In this document: in pieces, positions 37,807 to 50,213 of the stretch
How positions within the stretch are numbered: the stretch's first letter is position 1
How the letters are laid out: every line of letters starts with the position of its first letter
Assembly: GCF_009931435.1 (NCBI RefSeq)
Contig: NZ_CP043414.1
Strand: one strand, 5' to 3'
Length of the DNA: 64,000 nucleotides
Origin: Escherichia coli
GTDB taxonomy: Bacteria; Pseudomonadota; Gammaproteobacteria; Enterobacterales; Enterobacteriaceae
Notes under the pieces: generated by a model
Database searches by the model: none
Told to the model about the DNA's origin: nothing
Seen by the model: the letters and a program-made list of their open reading frames with translations, nothing else
Program-made: the position numbers and the translations under genes

Positions 37807-38101
37807 TTTGCCACCCTGGTTTTTTAAGCGGATTTAGAAAGCTGAAATCATTCGTGTGAATGATTTCAGCTTTTTTATTGATATTAATAATACCATTTAA
37901 AAAAATCTGCATTAATTAATAGATGTGATAAATATTTAATATGCTTAAGTATTTGTTGTATTTATATTGCAATAGTTAATTTGTTTTAAATCAATAAAAC
38001 AATATGTTTACATTGCGGCAACTTTTTTGATGTGAGAAATTTGTTTCCAAGAGATACAGACTCTTAACAACCAAAAAATAAATTTTATTAAGGGACATAT
38101 T

Positions 38102-38644
38102 ATGAAACGTTCAATTATTGCTGCCGCTGTCTTTTCTTCTTTTTTTATGAGCGCTGGGGTATTTGCCGCAGACGTTGATACCGGAACATTAACCATTAAA
38201 GGGAATATTGCAGAATCTCCGTGTAAATTCGAAGCGGGTGGCGATTCAGTAAGTATTAATATGCCAACTGTACCAACCACTGTCTTTGAAGGTAAAGCTA
38301 AATACTCGACCTATGATGATGCAGTCGGTGTAACCAGCAGCATGTTAAAAATTAGCTGTCCGAAAGAAGTTGCTGGTGTAAAACTCTCGTTGATTACCAA
38401 CGATAAAATAACCGGAAACGATAAGGCGATAGCCAGTAGCAACGATACCGTGGGGTACTATCTCTATTTAGGTGATAACAGCGATGTCCTGGATGTTTCT
38501 GCACCTTTTAACATTGAAAGTTATAAAACAGCGGAAGGTCAATATGCTATTCCGTTTAAAGCAAAATACCTGAAGCTGACAGATAATTCAGTGCAATCAG
38601 GTGATGTGTTATCTTCTCTGGTTATGCGTGTGGCGCAGGATTAA
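38102..38644 (+). CDS. yehD: Chaperone-usher fimbrial major subunit
   Basis: 180-aa ORF with signal peptide and fimbrial subunit architecture. Confidence 0.85.
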   Translation: MKRSIIAAAVFSSFFMSAGVFAADVDTGTLTIKGNIAESPCKFEAGGDSVSINMPTVPTTVFEGKAKYSTYDDAVGVTSSMLKISCPKEVAGVKLSLITNDKITGNDKAIASSNDTVGYYLYLGDNSDVLDVSAPFNIESYKTAEGQYAIPFKAKYLKLTDNSVQSGDVLSSLVMRVAQD

Positions 38645-38659
38645 TAAATAAAATTTCAA

Positions 38660-38712
38660 ATTTCTCCAGGTAATAAACATGGCCGCTATCCCCATGGCGG
38701 CCTTTTAATTTA
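38660..38712 (+). terminator. Intra-operon hairpin (attenuator) after yehD
   Basis: Palindrome ggccgctatccccatggcggcc followed by ttttaattt. Confidence 0.5.
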
Positions 38713-38724
38713 AGAGGCATTAAG

Positions 38725-39399
38725 ATGAAAGGATTATTAGCTTTACTCATTTCTTCTATGGTCCTTCCTGCACATGCCGGTATTGTCATCTACGGGACGC
38801 GTATTATTTACCCGGCAGAAAACAAAGAAGTGACGGTGCAGTTGATGAATCAGGGAAACCGTTCTTCGCTGCTGCAGGCGTGGATTGATGATGGCGATAC
38901 GTCGTTACCACCAGAAAAAATTCAGGTTCCTTTCATGTTAACGCCACCAGTGGCAAAAATAGGGGCAAATTCCGGGCAGCAAGTAAAAATCAAAATTATG
39001 TCGAATAAACTGCCCACTAATAAAGAGAGCATTTTTTATCTGAATGTTCTGGATATTCCACCAAATAGTCCAGAGCAAGAGGGCAAGAATGCACTGAAAT
39101 TTGCAATGCAAAACAGAATCAAATTGTTTTACCGGCCTGCGGGTATTGCACCGGTAAATAAAGCGACATTTAAAAAGTTACTGGTAAATCGCAGTGGCAA
39201 TGGATTGGTGATAAAAAATGACTCAGCAAATTGGGTAACGATTTCGGATGTCAAAGCTAATAATGTCAAAGTCAATTATGAAACTATTATGATTGCCCCC
39301 TTAGAAAGTCAGAGTATTAATGTCAAAAGTAATAATGCGAATAACTGGTATCTGACCATTATCGATGACCATGGCAACTATATTAGTGACAAAATTTAA
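38725..39399 (+). CDS. yehC: Periplasmic fimbrial chaperone (PapD-like); start uncertain
   Basis: 224-aa ORF with signal peptide and chaperone-like sequence. Confidence 0.8.
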   Translation: MKGLLALLISSMVLPAHAGIVIYGTRIIYPAENKEVTVQLMNQGNRSSLLQAWIDDGDTSLPPEKIQVPFMLTPPVAKIGANSGQQVKIKIMSNKLPTNKESIFYLNVLDIPPNSPEQEGKNALKFAMQNRIKLFYRPAGIAPVNKATFKKLLVNRSGNGLVIKNDSANWVTISDVKANNVKVNYETIMIAPLESQSINVKSNNANNWYLTIIDDHGNYISDKI

Positions 39400-41895
39400 T
39401 TGCAGGAGCTGCCTATGTTGAGAATGACCCCACTTGCATCAGCAATCGTAGCGTTATTGCTCGGCATTGAAGCTTATGCAGCTGAAGAAACCTTTGATAC
39501 CCATTTTATGATAGGTGGAATGAAAGACCAGCAGGTTGCAAATATTCGTCTTGATGATAATCAACCCTTGCCGGGGCAGTATGACATCGATATTTATGTC
39601 AATAAGCAATGGCGCGGGAAATATGAGATTATTGTTAAAGACAACCCGCAAGAAACATGTTTATCAAGGGAAATTATCAAGCGGTTAGGCATTAATACCG
39701 ATAACTTTGCCAGCGGTAAGCAATGTTTAACATTTGAGCAACTTGTTCACGGTGGGAGATATACCTGGGATATCGGAGTTTTTCGTCTCGATTTCAGTGT
39801 ACCGCAGGCGTGGGTGGAGGAACTGGAAAGTGGCTATGTTCCACCGGAAAACTGGGAGCGGGGTATTAATGCGTTTTATACCTCTTATTATGTGAGTCAG
39901 TATTACAGCGACTATAAAGCGTCGGGTAATAGCAAGAGTACATATGTACGTTTTAACAGCGGGTTAAATTTACTGGGGTGGCAACTGCATTCTGATGCCA
40001 GTTTCAGTAAAACAAATAGCAATCCAGGGGTGTGGAAAAGCAATACCCTGTATCTGGAACGTGGATTTGCCCAACTTCTCGGCACGCTTCGCGTGGGTGA
40101 TATGTACACATCAAGCGATATTTTCGATTCTGTTCGCTTCAGCGGTGTGCGGTTGTTTCGTGATATGCAGATGTTGCCTAACTCGAAACAAAATTTTACT
40201 CCACGGGTGCAGGGGATTGCTCAGAGTAACGCGCTGGTAACGATTGAACAGAACGGTTTTGTGGTTTATCAGAAAGAGGTTCCTCCTGGCCCGTTTGCGA
40301 TTACAGATTTGCAGTTGGCCGGTGGTGGAGCAGATCTTGATGTCAGCGTGAAAGAGGCGGACGGTTCGGTAACCACCTATCTGGTGCCTTATGCAGCAGT
40401 GCCGAATATGCTGCAACCCGGCGTGTCGAAATATGATTTTGCGGCAGGTCGTAGCCATATTGAAGGGGCGAGCAAACAAAGTGATTTTGTTCAGGCGGGT
40501 TATCAGTATGGTTTTAATAACTTATTGACGCTGTATGGCGGATCGATGGTCGCGAATAATTATTACGCGTTCACTTTGGGCACAGGCTGGAATACACGCA
40601 TTGGTGCCATTTCCGTCGATGCCACGAAGTCGCATAGTAAACAAGACAACGGCGATGTGTTTGACGGGCAAAGTTATCAAATTGCCTACAACAAATTTGT
40701 GAGCCAAACGTCGACGCGTTTTGGTCTGGCGGCCTGGCGTTATTCGTCGCGTGATTACCGGACATTTAACGATCACGTTTGGGCAAACAATAAAGATAAT
40801 TATCGCCGTGATGAAAACGATATCTATGACATTGCCGATTATTACCAGAACGATTTTGGCCGTAAAAATAGCTTTTCTGCCAATATGAGCCAGTCATTGC
40901 CAGAAGGCTGGGGTTCTGTGTCCTTAAGTACGTTATGGCGAGATTACTGGGGGCGTAGCGGCAGCAGTAAGGATTATCAGTTGAGTTATTCCAACAACCT
41001 GCGACGGATAAGCTATACCCTCGCGGCAAGCCAGGCTTATGACGAGAATCATCATGAAGAGAAACGTTTTAATATTTTTATATCGATTCCCTTTGATTGG
41101 GGTGATGACGTTACGACGCCTCGTCGGCAAATATATATGTCTAACTCAACGACGTTTGATGATCAGGGTTTTGCCTCAAATAATACGGGATTATCGGGAA
41201 CCGTTGGAAGCCGGGATCAATTTAACTATGGGGTCAACCTGAGTCATCAGCATCAGGGAAATGAAACGACAGCTGGAGCGAATTTAACCTGGAACGCGCC
41301 GGTGGCAACGGTGAATGGCAGTTATAGTCAGTCGAGTACTTATCGACAGGCTGGAGCCAGTCTTTCAGGGGGCATTGTCGCCTGGTCGGGTGGCGTTAAT
41401 CTGGCGAACCGTCTTTCCGAAACGTTTGCTGTGATGAATGCGCCAGGAATTAAAGATGCTTATGTCAATGGGCAAAAATATCGCACAACAAACCGTAATG
41501 GAGTGGTGGTATACGACGGAATGACACCTTATCGGGAAAATCACCTGATGCTGGATGTGTCGCAAAGCGATAGCGAAGCAGAATTACGTGGCAACCGGAA
41601 CATTGCCGTCCCTTTTCGCGGCGCGGTTGTACTGGTTAATTTTGATACCGATCAGCGCAAGCCCTGGTTTATAAAAGCGTTAAGAGCGGATGGGCAACCA
41701 TTAACGTTTGGTTATGAAGTCAATGATATCCACGGTCACAATATTGGTGTTGTCGGTCAGGGAAGCCAGTTATTTATCCGCACTAATGATGTACCGCCAT
41801 CGGTTAATGTGGCAATTGATAAACAACAAGGGCTCTCATGCACAATCACCTTCGGTAAAGAGATTGATGAAAATAGGAATTATATTTGCCAGTAA
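39400..41895 (+). CDS. yehB: Outer-membrane fimbrial usher; start uncertain
   Basis: 831-aa ORF, beta-barrel usher architecture, immediately after the chaperone. Confidence 0.85.
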   Translation: MQELPMLRMTPLASAIVALLLGIEAYAAEETFDTHFMIGGMKDQQVANIRLDDNQPLPGQYDIDIYVNKQWRGKYEIIVKDNPQETCLSREIIKRLGINTDNFASGKQCLTFEQLVHGGRYTWDIGVFRLDFSVPQAWVEELESGYVPPENWERGINAFYTSYYVSQYYSDYKASGNSKSTYVRFNSGLNLLGWQLHSDASFSKTNSNPGVWKSNTLYLERGFAQLLGTLRVGDMYTSSDIFDSVRFSGVRLFRDMQMLPNSKQNFTPRVQGIAQSNALVTIEQNGFVVYQKEVPPGPFAITDLQLAGGGADLDVSVKEADGSVTTYLVPYAAVPNMLQPGVSKYDFAAGRSHIEGASKQSDFVQAGYQYGFNNLLTLYGGSMVANNYYAFTLGTGWNTRIGAISVDATKSHSKQDNGDVFDGQSYQIAYNKFVSQTSTRFGLAAWRYSSRDYRTFNDHVWANNKDNYRRDENDIYDIADYYQNDFGRKNSFSANMSQSLPEGWGSVSLSTLWRDYWGRSGSSKDYQLSYSNNLRRISYTLAASQAYDENHHEEKRFNIFISIPFDWGDDVTTPRRQIYMSNSTTFDDQGFASNNTGLSGTVGSRDQFNYGVNLSHQHQGNETTAGANLTWNAPVATVNGSYSQSSTYRQAGASLSGGIVAWSGGVNLANRLSETFAVMNAPGIKDAYVNGQKYRTTNRNGVVVYDGMTPYRENHLMLDVSQSDSEAELRGNRNIAVPFRGAVVLVNFDTDQRKPWFIKALRADGQPLTFGYEVNDIHGHNIGVVGQGSQLFIRTNDVPPSVNVAIDKQQGLSCTITFGKEIDENRNYICQ

Positions 41896-41910
41896 TAATC
41901 GGGTGGCTCT

Positions 41911-42945
41911 ATGAAAATTCGCATAATGTTATTTATATTAATTATGATGGTAATGCCTGTGAGTTATGCAGCATGTTATGGAGAGTTATCTGCTCAGCAT
42001 AATTTGGCTGTTCAGGGGGATTTTGCACTGACTCAAACACAAACGGCGACATATGAGCATAATTTCAACGATTCATCATGTGTGAGTACAAATACCATCA
42101 TTCCCATGAATTCATCGGATATTATTGTTGGGCTGTATAACGATACTATTAAATTAAATTTACATTTTGAATGGATCAATAAAAACAACATCACGTTGTC
42201 AAATAATCAGACCAGTTTCACCAGTGGTTATTCGATAACGGTAACACCTGCGGCTAGTAATGCAAAAGTAAATGTTTCTGCGGGGGGCAGCGGTTCAGTG
42301 ATGATTAATGGTGTTGCGACATTATCCAGTGCTTCATCATCGACACGCGGGAGTGCTGCAGTACAATTTTTACTGTGTTTATTCGGTGGCAAGTCATGGG
42401 ATGCATGTGTAAATAGCTACAGAAATGCATTGGCACAAAATGCAGGTGTCTATTCCTTTAATCTGACATTGTCATACAACCCGATAACCACAACCTGCAA
42501 ACCGGACGATTTATTAATTACTTTAGAGAGTATTCCCATTTCACAATTACCAGCTACAGGTAACAAAGCAACAATAAATAGTAACAAAGGGGATATTGTT
42601 CTGCGTTGTAAAAACTTATTAGGTCAACAAAATCAAACATCACGGAAAATGCAGGTGTATTTATCAAGTTCTGATTTGTTAACCAACAGCAACACAATAC
42701 TGAAAGGTGCGGAAGATAATGGCGTAGGATTTATTCTTGAAAGTAATGGTTCTCCAGTCACACTTTTAAATATCACTAACAGCAGTAAAGAATACACAAA
42801 TTTAAAAGAAATTGCGGCAAAGTCAAAACTTACAGATACAACGGTTTCAATTCCGGTAACTGCCAGTTACTACGTCTACGATACAAATAAAGTTAAATCT
42901 GGCGCTCTGGAGGCTACCGCCTTAATCAACGTGAAATATGATTAA
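41911..42945 (+). CDS. yehA: Fimbrial adhesin-like protein
   Basis: 344-aa ORF with signal peptide; last gene of the operon. Confidence 0.8.
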   Translation: MKIRIMLFILIMMVMPVSYAACYGELSAQHNLAVQGDFALTQTQTATYEHNFNDSSCVSTNTIIPMNSSDIIVGLYNDTIKLNLHFEWINKNNITLSNNQTSFTSGYSITVTPAASNAKVNVSAGGSGSVMINGVATLSSASSSTRGSAAVQFLLCLFGGKSWDACVNSYRNALAQNAGVYSFNLTLSYNPITTTCKPDDLLITLESIPISQLPATGNKATINSNKGDIVLRCKNLLGQQNQTSRKMQVYLSSSDLLTNSNTILKGAEDNGVGFILESNGSPVTLLNITNSSKEYTNLKEIAAKSKLTDTTVSIPVTASYYVYDTNKVKSGALEATALINVKYD

Positions 42946-42989
42946 TAACAAGTAAGACGAGCAAGTGGCTAATAATAAAAAATAACAAG

Positions 42990-43030
42990 GTGTCTGCATT
43001 TCCCCCTCATGATGAGGGGGCTTTTTTTAG
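42990..43030. terminator. Bidirectional terminator between yehA and rcnB
   Basis: Palindrome ccccctcatgatgaggggg flanked by T-runs on both strands. Confidence 0.55.
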
Positions 43031-43365
43031 CGATGATAAAAAATCTCACCGTCGTAGGCTTTAATGATTTTACCGTCGGCATCGTTGATCAACACGTATG
43101 CGCCACCCATATAGGTCCAGTGCGTTCCGGCATCAGGAGCGGGCAGGTTACGTAACTGCCACTGCTTAATGTTGTACTCATCGGTGCGGTACATCTCTGG
43201 GACGGTATCGCCTGGTTTGAAATGCTTAAAGTCAGCAATGAAACTGCTTAACTCATACTTAGAAATTCCCGAGGTATTGGTCGAACCCGCGGTGGCTGGT
43301 GCGGCCCAGGCGGCACTGGTAACCAGCAATAGCGCACCCAGCAACATCTTATTTTTAATGGTCAT
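43027..43365 (-). CDS. rcnB: Periplasmic nickel/cobalt homeostasis protein RcnB
   Basis: Start MTIKNKMLLGALLLVTSAAWA (signal peptide) with ggagag Shine-Dalgarno-like sequence gives 112 aa; the 172-aa ORF-track call has a spurious N-terminal extension. Confidence 0.85.
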   Translation of the reverse strand: MTIKNKMLLGALLLVTSAAWAAPATAGSTNTSGISKYELSSFIADFKHFKPGDTVPEMYRTDEYNIKQWQLRNLPAPDAGTHWTYMGGAYVLINDADGKIIKAYDGEIFYHR

Positions 43366-43569
43366 ATACTCTCCACTTTGGGGATCTGTAATATCAGTCG
43401 CATATCTTTCCTGCCATACAATATAACTGACAAGCGATATTTTGTTAGTGATCCCATGATTTCGTAAAAAGTGTAAATGAAAGGATGCCCTAAAAGCATC
43501 CTTAGCGAGCAGAGAGCCAGCGGAAATAGCTGATTTAAGAATCATCCTGGGCTGAAGATAACATGCAGC

Positions 43570-44391
43570 CTATCGCATAATGCCCATAAAGCCATGCACG
43601 CCCATATACACCCCAACTAAGCCAATCAACAGACTGGAAAAATAGGGCGCACGTTTAGCGAGAGTGTTAAATCCGCTCCAGCGTTTTGCGACCTGCTGAA
43701 CGCTGATTGCTGCGCCAACGCCTACGGTGACCAGCGTTAACGCCAGGCCAATGCTGAAACTGACGACCAGTGTTGCGCCCAGTGTCAGGGCTTTCAACTG
43801 AATACAAATCAACAGCACGGTAATTGCTGCCGGGCAGGGGATCAGTCCACCTGTTAACCCAAACAATAAAATTTGCCAGTTGGTCACTTCTCTGCCATTG
43901 AAGCGTCGTTTGATGTCATTGGCATGGGCTCGTGCATGAGCATCCTGATACTCCCCATGTTCGTGATGGTGATGATGTCCATGGTCGTGGTGATCTTCGT
44001 GATCGTGATGATACTCATGATCATGCCCGTGCATATTCTCCAGCCAGTTGCGTTCGCCGCGCCAGGTACGCCAGAACATCCAGAACGCGGTGCCAATAAT
44101 GATCACCGCGGAAATCAACTGGAGCCACGGTTCTGCAGATTGAGCAGTAAAACGTTTGCTGATCACCATCCCGCCAAAGGCAATCAACCAGACCACCGCG
44201 GTATGCGAAAGGGTTGCTGCCAGTCCGAGCATCACCGCCTGTTTAATGGTGCCTTTGATGGCGATGATAAACGCCGCCATCATCGTTTTTGAGTGCCCTG
44301 GTTCCAGGCCATGAAGCGCACCAAGTAAGATGGCGCTGGGAATGAAGAACCAGGCGTTTCCTTGCTGAAGAAGAGTGGTAAATTCGGTCAT
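43570..44391 (-). CDS. rcnA: Nickel/cobalt efflux permease RcnA
   Basis: 273-aa membrane ORF with histidine-rich loop HGHDHEYHHDHEDHHDHGHHHHHEHGEYQDAHARAHA. Confidence 0.9.
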   Translation of the reverse strand: MTEFTTLLQQGNAWFFIPSAILLGALHGLEPGHSKTMMAAFIIAIKGTIKQAVMLGLAATLSHTAVVWLIAFGGMVISKRFTAQSAEPWLQLISAVIIIGTAFWMFWRTWRGERNWLENMHGHDHEYHHDHEDHHDHGHHHHHEHGEYQDAHARAHANDIKRRFNGREVTNWQILLFGLTGGLIPCPAAITVLLICIQLKALTLGATLVVSFSIGLALTLVTVGVGAAISVQQVAKRWSGFNTLAKRAPYFSSLLIGLVGVYMGVHGFMGIMR

Positions 44392-44428
44392 GATAATAAT
44401 TCTTAGTATTAATTCGGCAATCCGATTC

Positions 44429-44463
44429 TACTCCCCCCCAGTACCTGATACTACCCCCCAGTA
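44429..44463. promoter_or_regulatory. Two RcnR operator sites in the rcnA-rcnR divergent promoter region
   Basis: tactcccccccagta (44429..44443) and tactaccccccagta (44449..44463), each a TACT-G6-N-AGTA inverted repeat on the complementary strand. Confidence 0.8.
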
Positions 44464-44511
44464 GAATAATAGTGCTATGATTTTTCATGTTCTTGTTAAC
44501 CAGGTGTTGCC

Positions 44512-44784
44512 ATGTCTCATACAATCCGTGATAAACAGAAACTGAAAGCGCGTGCCAGTAAGATTCAGGGTCAGGTCGTGGCGCTCAAGAAAATGCTCGA
44601 CGAGCCGCACGAATGCGCAGCTGTTCTACAACAGATTGCTGCTATCCGTGGCGCGGTAAACGGTCTGATGCGGGAAGTGATTAAAGGTCATCTGACGGAA
44701 CACATCGTTCACCAGGGGGATGAGCTAAAACGTGAAGAAGATCTGGATGTCGTTCTGAAGGTGCTGGATTCATATATCAAATAA
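44512..44784 (+). CDS. rcnR: Ni/Co-responsive transcriptional repressor RcnR
   Basis: 90-aa ORF ([29 protein letters not shown]), CsoR/RcnR family. Confidence 0.9.
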
Positions 44785-44869
44785 TTTCACAACGTTATTG
44801 TAATCCCGCCGTTTTTCCTCGTTTACAACGTGTGCGCGGGACATTACCATCCATCTCTGCGATTCATCA

Positions 44870-45006
44870 TCGCAACCAAACGACTCGGGGTGCCCTTCTG
44901 CGTGAAGGCTGAGAAATACCCGTATCACCTGATCTGGATAATGCCAGCGTAGGGAAGTCACAGACCACCAGGTCATTGCTTCTTCACGTTATGGCAGGAG
45001 CAAACT
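44870..45006 (+). promoter_or_regulatory. Thiamine pyrophosphate (TPP) riboswitch in the thiM leader
   Basis: Canonical aptamer ggggtgcccttctgcgtgaaggctgagaaatacccgtatcacctgatctggataatgccagcgtagggaa, then an expression platform containing the ggcaggag Shine-Dalgarno sequence just before the thiM ATG. Confidence 0.9.
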
Positions 45007-45795
45007 ATGCAAGTCGACCTGCTGAGTTCCGCGCAATCAGCGCACGCGTTAAACCTCTTTTACCAACACTCTCCTCTTGTGCATTGCATGACCAATGATG
45101 TGGTGCAAACCTTTACTGCCAATACTTTACTGGTGCTCGGTGCATCGCCAGCGATGGTTATCGAAGCAGAAGAGGCCAGTCAATTTGCGGCTATCGCCAG
45201 TGCCTTGCTAATTAACGTCGGCACGCTGACGCAGCCACGCGCACAGGCAATGCGTGCTGCCGTTGAACAGGCAACACACTCCCAAACGCCCTGGACGCTT
45301 GATCCGGTCGCGGTTGGCGCACTCGATTATCGTCGCCGTTTTTGTCATGAACTTTTATCTTTTAAACCGACAGCGATACGTGGTAATGCTTCGGAAATCA
45401 TGGCATTAGCTGGCGTTGCTAATGGTGGACGGGGAGTGGACACCACTGACGCCGCGGCTAACGCGATACCTGCTGCACAAACACTGGCACGGGAAACTGG
45501 CGCAATCGTCGTGGTCACTGGCGAGGTGGATTATATTACCGATGGTCGTCGCACCGTTGGCATTCACGGCGGCAATTCGTTAATGACCAAAGTGGTAGGA
45601 ACTGGCTGTGCATTATCGGCAGTTGTCGCTGCCTGTTGTGCATTACCAGGCGATATGCTGGAAAATATCGCATCTGCCTGTCACTGGATGAAACAAGCCG
45701 GAGAACGCGCCGTCGCCAGAAGTGAAGGGCCTGGCAGTTTTGTTCCCCATTTTCTTGATGCGCTCTGGCAATTGACGCAGGAGGTGCAGGCATGA
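45007..45795 (+). CDS. thiM: Hydroxyethylthiazole kinase
   Basis: 262-aa ORF directly downstream of the TPP riboswitch; overlaps thiD by 4 nt. Confidence 0.9.
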
Positions 45796-46592
45796 AACGG
45801 ATTAACGCTCTGACAATTGCAGGCACTGATCCCAGTGGTGGCGCAGGAATTCAGGCAGATCTCAAAACGTTCTCTGCACTTGGTGCTTATGGTTGTTCAG
45901 TAATAACCGCCCTGGTAGCGCAAAACACCCGAGGCGTGCAATCGGTGTATCGCATAGATCCTGATTTTGTCGCCGCGCAGTTGGATTCGGTGTTCACTGA
46001 TGTGCGAATCGACACCACTAAAATCGGTATGTTGGCGGAAACCGATATTGTTGAAGCGGTGGCAGAACGGTTGCAACGTTATCAGATCCAAAACGTGGTA
46101 CTCGACACCGTTATGCTGGCAAAAAGCGGCGACCCTCTGCTTTCACCTTCGGCGGTTGCCACGCTGCGCAGTCGATTATTGCCACAGGTTTCATTAATAA
46201 CGCCAAACTTGCCCGAAGCTGCCGCCTTGCTCGACGCGCCACACGCGCGCAACGAACAGGAAATGCTGGAACAAGGGCGATCGCTGTTGGCGATGGGCTG
46301 TGGCGCAGTGCTAATGAAAGGTGGTCATCTGGATGATGAGCAAAGCCCGGACTGGCTGTTTACTCGCGAGGGGGAACAACGGTTTACTGCACCGCGCATT
46401 ATGACCAAAAACACCCACGGCACTGGTTGTACGCTCTCTGCGGCGTTGGCTGCACTGCGCCCGCGCCATACAAACTGGGCTGACACCGTCCAGGAGGCAA
46501 AAAGCTGGCTTTCATCGGCGTTAGCCCAGGCCGACACGCTGGAAGTTGGTCACGGTATTGGTCCGGTTCACCACTTCCACGCCTGGTGGTGA
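45792..46592 (+). CDS. thiD: Hydroxymethylpyrimidine / phosphomethylpyrimidine kinase
   Basis: 266-aa ORF; ribokinase-like motifs. Confidence 0.9.
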
Positions 46593-46647
46593 GCACCTTA
46601 CTATAGCTGCTTTGGTTATTGTCAGTATTTAGCGCTGACATTCAGGG

Positions 46648-47475
46648 ATGAAACCAATGCAGCTGAGAATCACCAGTCGAAAAAAATTCACCGCTTTATT
46701 ATGCGCTCTTGGGCTAATTTCCATCGTTGCAATTTATCCGCGTCAGACGGTGAATTTTTTCTATTCGACAGCAATTCAGATTAAAGACTACATCCACTTC
46801 TACGGTTATCGTCCGGTTAAATCTTTCGCTATTCGCATTCCTGCCAGTTACACCATTCACGGAATAGATGTTTCGCGCTGGCAGGAGCGGATCGACTGGC
46901 AGCGGGTGGCAAAAATGCGCGATAACGGTATTCGCTTGCAATTTGCCTTTATCAAGGCGACGGAAGGCGAAAAACTGGTGGACCCGTATTTTTCGCGTAA
47001 CTGGCAACTAAGCCGCGAAAATGGCCTGTTGCGTGGGGCGTATCATTATTTTTCCCCGTCGGTATCCGCCTCAGTTCAGGCGCGATTATTTCTGCAAACG
47101 GTGGATTTTGCCCACGGTGATCTCCCTGCTGTGCTGGACGTAGAAGAGCGCGGAAAATTATCGGCGAAGGAATTACGCAAGCAGGTAAGTCAGTGGCTAA
47201 AAATGGTCGAAAAAAGCACAGGAAAAAAGCCGATTATTTATGCAGGCGCGACGTTTTATCACACGAATCTGGCGGGGTATTTCAATGAATATCCGTGGTG
47301 GGTGGCTCACTATTATCAACGTCGTCCGGACAATGACGGCATGGCCTGGCGCTTCTGGCAGCATTCCGACCGTGGACAGGTAGATGGCATTAATGGTCTG
47401 GTGGATTTTAATGTGTTTAATGGCACGGTGGAGGAGCTGCAGGGATTCGTTGATGGGATTAAAGAAACGCCTTAA
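46648..47475 (+). CDS. yegX: Glycoside hydrolase family 25 (lysozyme-like) protein; start uncertain
   Basis: 275-aa ORF with N-terminal hydrophobic segment and GH25-like sequence. Confidence 0.75.
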   Translation: MKPMQLRITSRKKFTALLCALGLISIVAIYPRQTVNFFYSTAIQIKDYIHFYGYRPVKSFAIRIPASYTIHGIDVSRWQERIDWQRVAKMRDNGIRLQFAFIKATEGEKLVDPYFSRNWQLSRENGLLRGAYHYFSPSVSASVQARLFLQTVDFAHGDLPAVLDVEERGKLSAKELRKQVSQWLKMVEKSTGKKPIIYAGATFYHTNLAGYFNEYPWWVAHYYQRRPDNDGMAWRFWQHSDRGQVDGINGLVDFNVFNGTVEELQGFVDGIKETP

Positions 47476-47526
47476 ATAAGAAGCAGTGATATACTCCCAC
47501 CAGACTCCCTGGCAGGAAAAAGACAA

Positions 47527-48273
47527 ATGGAACAAGCGCATACCCAGCTGATTGCCCAACTGAACGAACGTATTTTAGCGGCGGATAACACGCCGCTTTA
47601 TATTAAGTTTGCCGAAACGGTGAAAAATGCCGTGCGCAGCGGGGTGCTGGAACATGGCAATATTTTACCCGGCGAGCGCGATTTAAGTCAGTTAACCGGC
47701 GTTTCGCGCATTACGGTGCGCAAGGCGATGCAGGCGCTGGAAGAAGAGGGCGTGGTGACACGTTCGCGCGGCTACGGCACGCAGATTAATAACATCTTTG
47801 AATACTCGTTAAAAGAAGCGCGAGGATTTTCTCAGCAGGTGGTGTTGCGCGGGAAAAAGCCCGATACGCTATGGGTTAACAAGCGAGTGGTTAAATGCCC
47901 TGAAGAGGTGGCGCAGCAATTGGCGGTCGAAGCGGGTAGTGATGTCTTTTTGCTTAAGCGTATTCGCTATGTTGATGAAGAAGCGGTCTCTATTGAGGAG
48001 TCGTGGGTTCCGGCGCATTTAATTCATGATGTTGATGCCATCGGAATCTCTCTTTATGACTACTTCCGCAGTCAGCATATTTTTCCAAAGCGTACCCGTT
48101 CCCGCGTTAGCGCCCGGATGCCGGATGCCGAGTTTCAGTCACATATTCAATTAGATAGTAAAATACCGGTGCTGGTGATCAAGCAAGTGGCGCTTGACCA
48201 ACAGCAACGGCCTATTGAGTACAGCATCAGCCACTGTCGCAGTGATCTATACGTTTTTGTGTGTGAGGAGTAG
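47527..48273 (+). CDS. yegW: GntR-family transcriptional regulator
   Basis: 248-aa ORF; N-terminal winged helix-turn-helix, UTRA-like C-terminal domain. Confidence 0.8.
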   Translation: MEQAHTQLIAQLNERILAADNTPLYIKFAETVKNAVRSGVLEHGNILPGERDLSQLTGVSRITVRKAMQALEEEGVVTRSRGYGTQINNIFEYSLKEARGFSQQVVLRGKKPDTLWVNKRVVKCPEEVAQQLAVEAGSDVFLLKRIRYVDEEAVSIEESWVPAHLIHDVDAIGISLYDYFRSQHIFPKRTRSRVSARMPDAEFQSHIQLDSKIPVLVIKQVALDQQQRPIEYSISHCRSDLYVFVCEE

Positions 48274-49212
48274 TTCCTCGCGGGTTGGCGCGCAATCACC
48301 GCCGCGATGCCCGACAACCCACGACGCCACTGCATTGCCCAGCAATACGGCATCCGCCAGTGGCAAACCAGAGGCCAGTCCAGCTAATACGCCACCTGCA
48401 TGACTGTCGCCCGCCCCAATGGTGTCTACAACTTGCGTTGGAAATGCCGGGATGCAGCCAGAAGCGTTATTGCTGAAATACCATGCGCCTTCTTTATCGA
48501 GACGAACGATCAACGGCGCGGCAAATTTCTCCTGCCATTGCTTGCCAAGTGTTGTTATCTCTGCTGATAAAGCAAAACGTTCGGCGGCAATCTCACCCTC
48601 CTGACGATTGAGTGACACTAAAGGTCGACAGGCCATGATTCGCGCCAGTAATGCATCCGGGATATCGCCAATACGTGGGCCAAAATCGATGAACGGCGTC
48701 ACGTCTTGCAGACTCTCCAGCCATTCCACTAACAATTCACCGCAGGGCGAGGCCAGTTGATAACCAGAAAAATAGAGCAGGCTGCCAGGCGCAACGGTTA
48801 ATCGCGCCAACCATTCGCGATTCCACTGATTTTCCACACCACTGAACGACATAAACGTGCGTTCACCATCAGGCTCAACCAGCGCCAGACACCAGCCGTT
48901 ATCGCCTTCGGCGTTATCGATGAGGCTGATTAATCCTTCTTTCGCCATCCGGTTACGAATAATTTCCGCCCACACACCCTGGCCGAGCGGCAGGGCATTA
49001 CCCGCTTCGATACCGAGGCGCTTTAACGCCACGGCAATATTCAGTGCGCAGCCGCCAACGTTAACGCTCTGCTGTTTCAGTTCGATATCGCACCCACGCC
49101 AGGGGAGGGCATAAGCGTCGGCGATCACATCAATGACTGCCGCGCCGACGACCATCACCGGCTGACGCGTGGTTAATTCAGGCAGCAGCGTGTGTAATCG
49201 AGCGCCGCTCAT
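48247..49212 (-). CDS. yegV: PfkB-family carbohydrate/nucleoside kinase
   Basis: 321-aa ORF; ribokinase-family motifs (GAGDSHAGG); 3' end overlaps convergent yegW. Confidence 0.8.
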   Translation of the reverse strand: MSGARLHTLLPELTTRQPVMVVGAAVIDVIADAYALPWRGCDIELKQQSVNVGGCALNIAVALKRLGIEAGNALPLGQGVWAEIIRNRMAKEGLISLIDNAEGDNGWCLALVEPDGERTFMSFSGVENQWNREWLARLTVAPGSLLYFSGYQLASPCGELLVEWLESLQDVTPFIDFGPRIGDIPDALLARIMACRPLVSLNRQEGEIAAERFALSAEITTLGKQWQEKFAAPLIVRLDKEGAWYFSNNASGCIPAFPTQVVDTIGAGDSHAGGVLAGLASGLPLADAVLLGNAVASWVVGHRGGDCAPTREELLLTHKNV

Positions 49213-50213
49213 GCCGCCTCCCGTTGTTGGCGATACTTTGCCAGCGCCGTGGCATAATGATTAAAATCAAGCTGATTTACCGCATCCAGCTCCGTCTTAA
49301 ACGCAGGATCGATAGCGTTAACGCCATGCAATGCGCCGCAAATCGCCGTCGCCATAGCGCCGATGGTGTCTGTGTCGCCGCCAAGGTTAGCGCACAGGAT
49401 GGCGCAACGGTTCGGGTCGGTTTGTGCCAGTTCAACCAGCGCAATGGCGCACGGAACGGACTCAATAGTACTGGTACCTGCCCCAACCACCTGATACAGC
49501 TGTTCGCTGGCGGATTCGGTGCCGTCGGCATTGCGCACAATTTTCAGCGCAATCTCCAGACGTGCTGCCAGTGAGGCGCTGAAGGTAGTGATGCGTTTTT
49601 GCTGTGCATGTCGCGCAATCGAGGGTAGAGAATCAACAATCGCTGACCAGCTTTCTCCGTCAATGGCACGGGAAATCGCCCATGCGATGACTACCGCACC
49701 TGCCACCGCCAGATCGGATTTATGGGTCGGGCTGGACGCCAGCGCCACATCATCAATAAAGGAATCAACATTGCGCGCCGGAAGCAAACAACCTAATGGC
49801 GAGACGCGCATCGCTGCGCCGTTGGTCACGCCATTGTTTTCCAGTTCAGCAACGGGTTTACCGTCGCGAATGGCGTTAAGCGCAATCTTCGAGGTCGGAC
49901 CTAGTACGTTTTTGTTAAAGGCGTCGAAACGCAGCGCCCAGTCGAGAATATTACGCCCAATCAGATCCGGATCGATCTTGCCTTCACGTTCCAGTAACGC
50001 ATCCGCCAGACACAGCGCCATCGAGGTATCGTCGGTGAATTCGGCGCGGTTAAAATAACAGGCCGCGTTATTCTCCTTTGGTCCAGGAAGAAAACGGTCA
50101 ATCCAGCCAAAGTGTGCTTTAACGCGGCTGCGTGGCCAAAGCTCGGAGGGCATCCCCATCGCATCCCCTAACGCCTGCCCATAAAGAGCACCGAGAATAC
50201 GTTCTGTTTTCAT
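49209..50213 (-). CDS. yegU: ADP-ribosylglycohydrolase-family protein
   Basis: 334-aa ORF; overlaps yegV and yegT junctions. Confidence 0.8.
   Translation of the reverse strand: MKTERILGALYGQALGDAMGMPSELWPRSRVKAHFGWIDRFLPGPKENNAACYFNRAEFTDDTSMALCLADALLEREGKIDPDLIGRNILDWALRFDAFNKNVLGPTSKIALNAIRDGKPVAELENNGVTNGAAMRVSPLGCLLPARNVDSFIDDVALASSPTHKSDLAVAGAVVIAWAISRAIDGESWSAIVDSLPSIARHAQQKRITTFSASLAARLEIALKIVRNADGTESASEQLYQVVGAGTSTIESVPCAIALVELAQTDPNRCAILCANLGGDTDTIGAMATAICGALHGVNAIDPAFKTELDAVNQLDFNHYATALAKYRQQREAA

Follow-up and report, generated by a model that had tools for sequence, protein, structure and literature searches.

The window, i.e. the whole stretch of 64,000 nucleotides of Escherichia coli DNA that was analysed (contig NZ_CP043414.1, assembly GCF_009931435.1), contains a nickel/cobalt efflux locus composed of the following genes and operators:

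43570..44391, minus strand: rcnA coding sequence, an open reading frame of 273 codons encoding a 273-aa Ni(II)/Co(II) efflux membrane protein
44512..44784, plus strand: rcnR, encoding a Ni/Co-responsive repressor of 90 aa, divergent from rcnA and upstream of it (Pfam PF02583, 3.5e-21)
43027..43365, minus strand: rcnB, encoding a periplasmic accessory protein of 112 aa, downstream of rcnA (Pfam PF11776 RcnB, 1.7e-19)
44429..44443, minus strand: RcnR operator 1, exact pattern match to TACT-G6-N-AGTA, 0 expected by chance
44449..44463, minus strand: RcnR operator 2, exact match to the same pattern, 0 expected by chance

The original prediction that the central gene encodes RcnA was borne out by family searches, in which the protein matched Pfam PF03824 NicO over residues 13-272 (2e-69, 234.5 bits at a cut-off of 27.7) and the NCBIfam nickel/cobalt efflux transporter NF007454 over residues 1-273 (4e-167, 554.5 bits at a cut-off of 195). 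Further Pfam similarity, to DsbD_2 and SfLAP, was weak in both cases. The product of the divergent gene scored 197 bits against the NCBIfam RcnR equivalog (cut-off 138), the operator consensus was taken from PMC7055735, and the RefSeq genomes of E. coli that were fetched have an annotated rcnB in the corresponding position. The family matches, together with the two operators and the synteny with rcnR and rcnB, point to the standard chromosomal rcnR-rcnAB nickel/cobalt efflux unit, and on the strength of its sequence the annotation of rcnA in the window is secure. Nickel and cobalt resistance through efflux is known for the K-12 orthologue, as credited to Rodrigue 2005 and Iwig 2006 in passages of PMC7055735 and PMC7689651.

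RcnA of K-12 (YohM, b2106) occupies the same chromosomal position and is likewise accompanied by rcnR, two RcnR operators and rcnB. The two proteins are 98% identical, and their membrane cores differ at 3 residues only. At the nucleotide level the divergence of rcnA from K-12 amounts to about 4.9% outside the loop discussed below, most of it synonymous, while rcnB and rcnR diverge by 4.1% and 1.5%, respectively. When the surrounding 12 kb (38000-50000) was compared with 5,426 complete E. coli genomes, the best match was only 98.1% identical; the gene order yehB-yehA-rcnB-rcnA-rcnR-thiM-thiD-yegX and so on is fully conserved in this region. The window seems, from these comparisons, to represent a somewhat divergent lineage of E. 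coli with few members among the complete genomes.

Several observations concern the neighbourhood of the locus. A TPP riboswitch (RF00059, 71.5 bits at a gathering score of 54.3) lies immediately beyond rcnR on the plus strand at 44876-44972, upstream of thiM and thiD (45007-45795 and 45792-46592), and the annotation of RefSeq genomes shows it in this place as well. On the other side, rcnB is adjoined by a 344-aa open reading frame on the plus strand (41911-42945), which corresponds to yehA, a putative fimbrial-like adhesin of the yeh chaperone-usher operon. The mechanically produced list of open reading frames contains one of 172 aa at 43027-43545 on the minus strand, of which only the last 112 codons (43027-43365) constitute the annotated RcnB; its N-terminal extension spans the rcnA-rcnB intergenic region.

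The feature of rcnA that gave rise to this study is a histidine-rich segment, which can be described at two levels:

43954..44031, minus strand: core of the His-rich loop, aa 121-146, HGHDHEYHHDHEDHHDHGHHHHHEHG, made of degenerate tandem repeats and the site of all E. coli length variation that was read
43873..44070, minus strand: whole hydrophilic loop, aa 108-173 (66 aa), between hydrophobic segments 3 and 4, with 8 K/R, 13 D/E and 17 H

The peptide quoted in the original prediction was found exactly at residues 121-146, and the predicted stretch of about 35 residues dominated by His, Asp and Glu corresponds to aa 121-156 (36 aa), which hold 17 His, 5 Asp and 4 Glu and thus 17 of the 21 histidines of the whole protein. 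The coordinates originally given for it, 43570-44391, are correct for the entire gene and not for the loop itself. Within the 26 residues of the core there are 15 His, 4 Asp and 3 Glu; at a His frequency of 2.4% outside the core, the binomial probability of at least 15 His in 26 residues is 3.6e-18. The coding strand of this segment consists almost wholly of CAT, CAC, GAT, GAC, GAA and GAG codons, so the description of the DNA as low in complexity and rich in cat, cac and gat was accurate, with an imperfect period-18 array in addition. Tandem Repeats Finder placed this array at 43957-44022, with 3.1-3.5 copies, 71-73% matches and a period-9 sub-pattern, and a repeat search in the window loop returned three copies spaced by 18 nt with 73-79% identity. 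Perfect repeat units occur in the window allele in at most 2 copies.

Hydropathy analysis of the window RcnA revealed six hydrophobic segments, with the His-rich part between the third and the fourth. Since 15 K/R residues fall on loops 1, 3 and 5 and 4 on the other side, the positive-inside rule would place the His loop in the cytoplasm, where it had been put in the original prediction and where the loop of homologues is also predicted to lie (PMC11247825). RcnA may thus be pictured as a six-helix inner-membrane exporter, in which a long hydrophilic and presumably cytoplasmic loop connects two halves of three helices each. Compared by BLASTP, the two halves (residues 1-120 and 147-273) had no detectable similarity (E = 28). 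A sequence search of the PDB returned no structure of the RcnA family; the hits were artefacts of the His run, which aligned with proteins that are His-tagged or rich in His, the best of them a cobaltochelatase (E-value 2.4e-4). AlphaFold2, run on a shallow alignment of 9 sequences, gave an unusable model (mean pLDDT 36.8, pTM 0.28), in which the core loop appears as coil between helices 88-121 and 147-164.

Variation of the loop in the species was assessed by megablast of rcnA against the 5,426 complete E. coli genomes. The gene was present in 5,365 of them, and no match was obtained in the remaining 61. Lengths were tabulated for an evenly spaced sample of 59 full-length matches, of which 51 encode a protein of 274 aa; forms of 281 and 283 aa were found twice each, and those of 267, 273, 278 and 282 aa once each. 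Searches focused on the loop added RcnA lengths of 265, 269, 279, 285, 289, 291 and 293 aa. The predicted difference in loop length between strains is therefore real: RcnA of E. coli spans 265-293 aa in at least 14 length classes, and a single loop length common to all strains is clearly not what the rcnA alleles of this species display. The 274-aa form nevertheless prevails, occurring in about 86-88% of genomes across many lineages, while the core loop ranges from 18 to 46 aa across the catalogued alleles, which include HD, HE and mixed types.

In the alleles that were read, this variation is strictly localized. When 9 full alleles were aligned as proteins and by codons, the insertions and deletions proved to be confined between the conserved anchors WLENM and EYQ. 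When 19 loops were read codon by codon, every indel in all 19 lay inside the His loop, comprised whole repeat units (3, 6, 9 or 18 nt) and preserved the reading frame. All 18 RefSeq rcnA alleles that were fetched are annotated as intact coding sequences, and none is flagged as a pseudogene. Outside the loop RcnA is under strong purifying selection, since pairwise comparison of the 9 full-length alleles gave a total of 847 synonymous versus 74 non-synonymous codon differences there.

Some irregularities at the locus were encountered in the course of these comparisons. The alleles of 278 aa (L003 601-1437) and 281 aa (L006 601-1446) stop one codon early, ending in GIM instead of GIMR, a C-terminal difference that is unrelated to the loop. 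Insertion sequences or deletions have struck the locus repeatedly in other strains. In strain LR-03, rcnB is truncated by IS1; in strain SY3626, IS1 adjoins rcnR, which is annotated there as a longer coding sequence; and in strain 81EVA an element of the IS3 family underlies a partial rcnA match. Only the first 111 nt of rcnA match in strain ZF31, where they adjoin yehA. One rcnA match is located on a plasmid instead of the chromosome, and in a few genomes rcnA matches at two places.

The alleles fall into three classes, which differ by 3.5-5.8% outside the loop and, in addition, by many substitutions. In the class that comprises K-12 and the window, the loop is built of degenerate units of 18 and 9 nt. 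The 18-nt unit CATCATCACGATCACGAA is present in 1 or 2 copies, and the second copy extends the core loop, which has 27 residues in K-12, to 32 residues; some alleles bear an extra 9-nt duplication, CATCATCAC, which results in a 35-residue core. At least 95% identity to the K-12 loop fragment was found in 4,699 of 5,363 genomes, and all 52 of those sampled had the K-12 length. The window protein, of 273 aa and with 15 His in a loop beginning HGHDHEYHHDHEDHH, is one codon shorter than that of K-12, of 274 aa and with 17 His in a loop beginning HGHDYEHHHHDHEHHH. The core of 26 residues in the window differs from the K-12 loop by this one codon (3 nt), at a (CAT)3 run, and by three substitutions. 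The length class of the window is rare (28 of 5,363 genomes, or 0.5%); its members are 96.4-100% identical over a 250-nt fragment, and there is no length variant among them.

The two other classes contain perfect hexanucleotide arrays. In the O157 class, (GACCAC)n encodes (Asp-His)n with n of 4, 5, 6, 7, 9, 10 or 11 and proteins of 279-293 aa. Such alleles (E <= 1e-90) were found in 266 genomes, only 133 of which have n = 6. In the HE class, (CACGAG)n encodes (His-Glu)n with n of 3, 4 or 5 and proteins of 265-269 aa, and 85 of its 141 genomes have n = 4. The O157 array and that of the window occupy the same position in the same gene, but O157 rcnA combines the perfect (GACCAC)n with a 9-nt insertion, GACAACGAA, whereas the window has no perfect array.

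Because the His/Asp/Glu peptide is repetitive, the DNA that encodes it forms a short in-frame tandem-repeat array. Replication slippage in such an array would add or remove whole units of 3, 6, 9 or 18 nt without ever breaking the frame, and its rate may be expected to depend on repeat purity, so that perfect hexanucleotide arrays would behave as true variable-number repeats and degenerate ones, like those of K-12 and the window, would change in length only rarely. The O157 group provides the most direct evidence. Most of the sampled rows of different length show no other difference in the 280-nt fragment, the loss of identity being made up of gap columns alone (an identity of 97.9% corresponds to 6/286). 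Gap-only loss of identity, together with changes by whole 6-nt units among near-clonal O157 genomes, argues for replication slippage in situ and not for exchange of alleles. Degenerate arrays, in turn, kept their length across hundreds of lineages despite point differences of up to 4%. That degenerate arrays are stable and perfect ones variable indicates that mutability tracks repeat purity, as expected for slippage.

Slipped-strand length variation, as originally predicted for this loop, thus holds for the perfect-repeat alleles and is not evident for the allele in which it had been proposed. The repeat of the window is degenerate and all 28 genomes of its class have the same length, which makes rapid slippage a property of perfect-repeat alleles and not evidently one of the window allele. 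The window's own array looks stable, a rare and degenerate member of the locus, as far as can be judged from genome comparison. Substitutions between classes and the 3.5-5.8% divergence of the flanks indicate that part of the species-wide length diversity is old, having been passed on by descent or recombination.

In a rival account, slippage would have no real part in the length diversity. Ancient, stable allele lineages would have been swapped by homologous recombination, with the repeat-like character of the DNA a mere by-product of coding for His, Asp and Glu. Such a scheme would agree with the distance between the three classes outside the loop, with the sharing of the modal 274-aa length by about 87% of genomes in many lineages, and with the invariance of the 273-aa length in its 28 carriers. 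Nevertheless, half of the near-clonal O157 genomes differ in copy number. Most of the sampled rows that differ in length are otherwise identical over the 280-nt fragment, the HE class behaves likewise, and the steps are all whole 6-nt units; moreover, single-unit changes were directly seen during passage of Salmonella (PMC5183578). We therefore regard an account by recombination without slippage as very unlikely.

Two other possibilities appear more remote still. Repeats are prone to assembly errors and some of the records come from long-read assemblies, so the length variants might be artefacts of sequencing or assembly in a low-complexity region; however, all 19 alleles differ by whole units (3, 6, 9 or 18 nt), the fetched alleles are intact, in-frame coding sequences, the arrays do not exceed 66 nt, which is far below read length, and the values of n found in silico (4-11) agree with the 3-11 obtained by PCR fragment sizing (PMC3321953). 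An artefactual origin is accordingly extremely improbable. Equally improbable is that the array acts as a contingency locus, with the pump silenced by frameshift in an on/off manner. Simple-sequence repeats within genes often do serve phase variation, but here such a switch was rejected, given that the units are all multiples of 3 nt, that 19 of 19 alleles are in frame and that no pseudogene occurs among the fetched alleles; in the examples that were noticed, loss of rcnA or rcnB goes with IS elements or deletion. With units divisible by three throughout, the length of the loop varies and the gene is never switched off. The reading that we favour, with a probability of about 0.9, is that of a known rcnR-rcnA-rcnB efflux locus in which the length of the loop changes in frame by slippage of repeat units, at a rate set by their purity.

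The array is in fact familiar from strain typing, though under other names. VNTR-19 (identical to TR7) was described as a 6-bp repeat in ORF Z3274, for which a German study of 202 O157 isolates recorded 9 alleles and 3-11 repeats (PMC3321953); the PulseNet primer sequences are also given there. In rcnA of the O157:H7 strain G5295 (L008), the forward primer was found at 883-918 with 0 mismatches and the reverse primer at 1163-1191 with 1 mismatch. Since the primers lie inside rcnA and flank the loop, VNTR-19 is the RcnA loop. The homologous site for the forward primer in the window is as follows:

44074..44109, minus strand: site homologous to the VNTR-19/TR7 forward primer, with 3 mismatches

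For the reverse primer, a search of the window that allowed up to 3 mismatches found no match, and with 3 mismatches in one primer and more than 3 in the other the assay would probably fail on the window strain. A full-text search by gene name (rcnA or yohM) returned no paper that ties the gene to a variable repeat in E. coli; the link between rcnA and the typing locus in this species was found through the locus tag Z3274 and the mapping of primers.

Orthologous loops of the orthologous pump, likewise with an in-frame 6-nt unit, serve as typing loci in other enterobacteria. In Salmonella, the locus STTR5 consists of CACGAC units within yohM, as rcnA was formerly called, with 7-26 copies in S. 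Typhimurium (PMC1781188, PMC5183578), and it was shown to change in steps of one unit when passaged for up to 50 generations (PMC5183578). A 54-nt deletion, (HD)9, at nt 367 of rcnA arose during in vivo passage in chickens (PMC6760104). The Salmonella unit is a rotation of that of O157 and encodes His-Asp, and the deletion at nt 367 falls in codon 123, where the loop of E. coli is also located. The counterpart in K. pneumoniae is typing locus 27, where rcnA contains 0-19 copies of CATGGT (PMC3948817). Copy numbers of the Salmonella and Klebsiella arrays are much higher and their change has been measured in the laboratory, whereas the array of the window is short and degenerate. The same loop of the same family also varies in length between taxa; in cable bacteria it is expanded to 100-123 aa with 33-53 His (PMC11247825), compared with 66 aa and 17 His in the window.

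A separate problem is the function of the loop. Disordered His-rich cytoplasmic loops are present in other exporters of divalent metals, the CDF transporters of the CzcD, ZnT and MTP1 type, in which they are thought to bind or sense the substrate. The resemblance to RcnA is one of working principle only, as fold and family are unrelated, and no Cation_efflux (CDF) domain was found among the Pfam matches of RcnA, which comprise NicO, DsbD_2 and SfLAP only. The loop of RcnA is probably a flexible arm of low specificity, which would capture Ni(II) or Co(II) and pass the ion to the membrane pathway, or else act as a buffer; whether RcnA exports the metal or chelates it by means of the loop was called unclear in PMC11247825.

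One may speculate that the array is more than a neutral typing marker and serves as an in-frame device for tuning metal handling, although we consider this doubtful. In such a scheme, mutable perfect arrays would have evolved at least twice from a degenerate, stable ancestor similar to the window allele, as (Asp-His)n in O157 and as (His-Glu)n elsewhere, and the length and composition of the loop would set the capacity of nickel and cobalt efflux, the metal preference or the buffering according to niche. The mid-range bias of Salmonella STTR5 (PMC5183578) would then mean stabilising selection on the function of the loop.

Variation of the loop length by gain and loss of short repeats is already known and in routine use for strain typing; the description of three classes and the population figures given here are a catalogue and not a discovery, and contain nothing new in kind. 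The single codon by which the window allele is shorter than that of K-12 reflects ordinary variation between alleles, not an error. The practical value of the loop array lies in its discriminating power in outbreak typing of O157:H7, Salmonella and Klebsiella, and the natural allele series, with core loops of 18-46 aa, would constitute a ready panel on which the relationship of loop length and composition to nickel and cobalt resistance may be examined.
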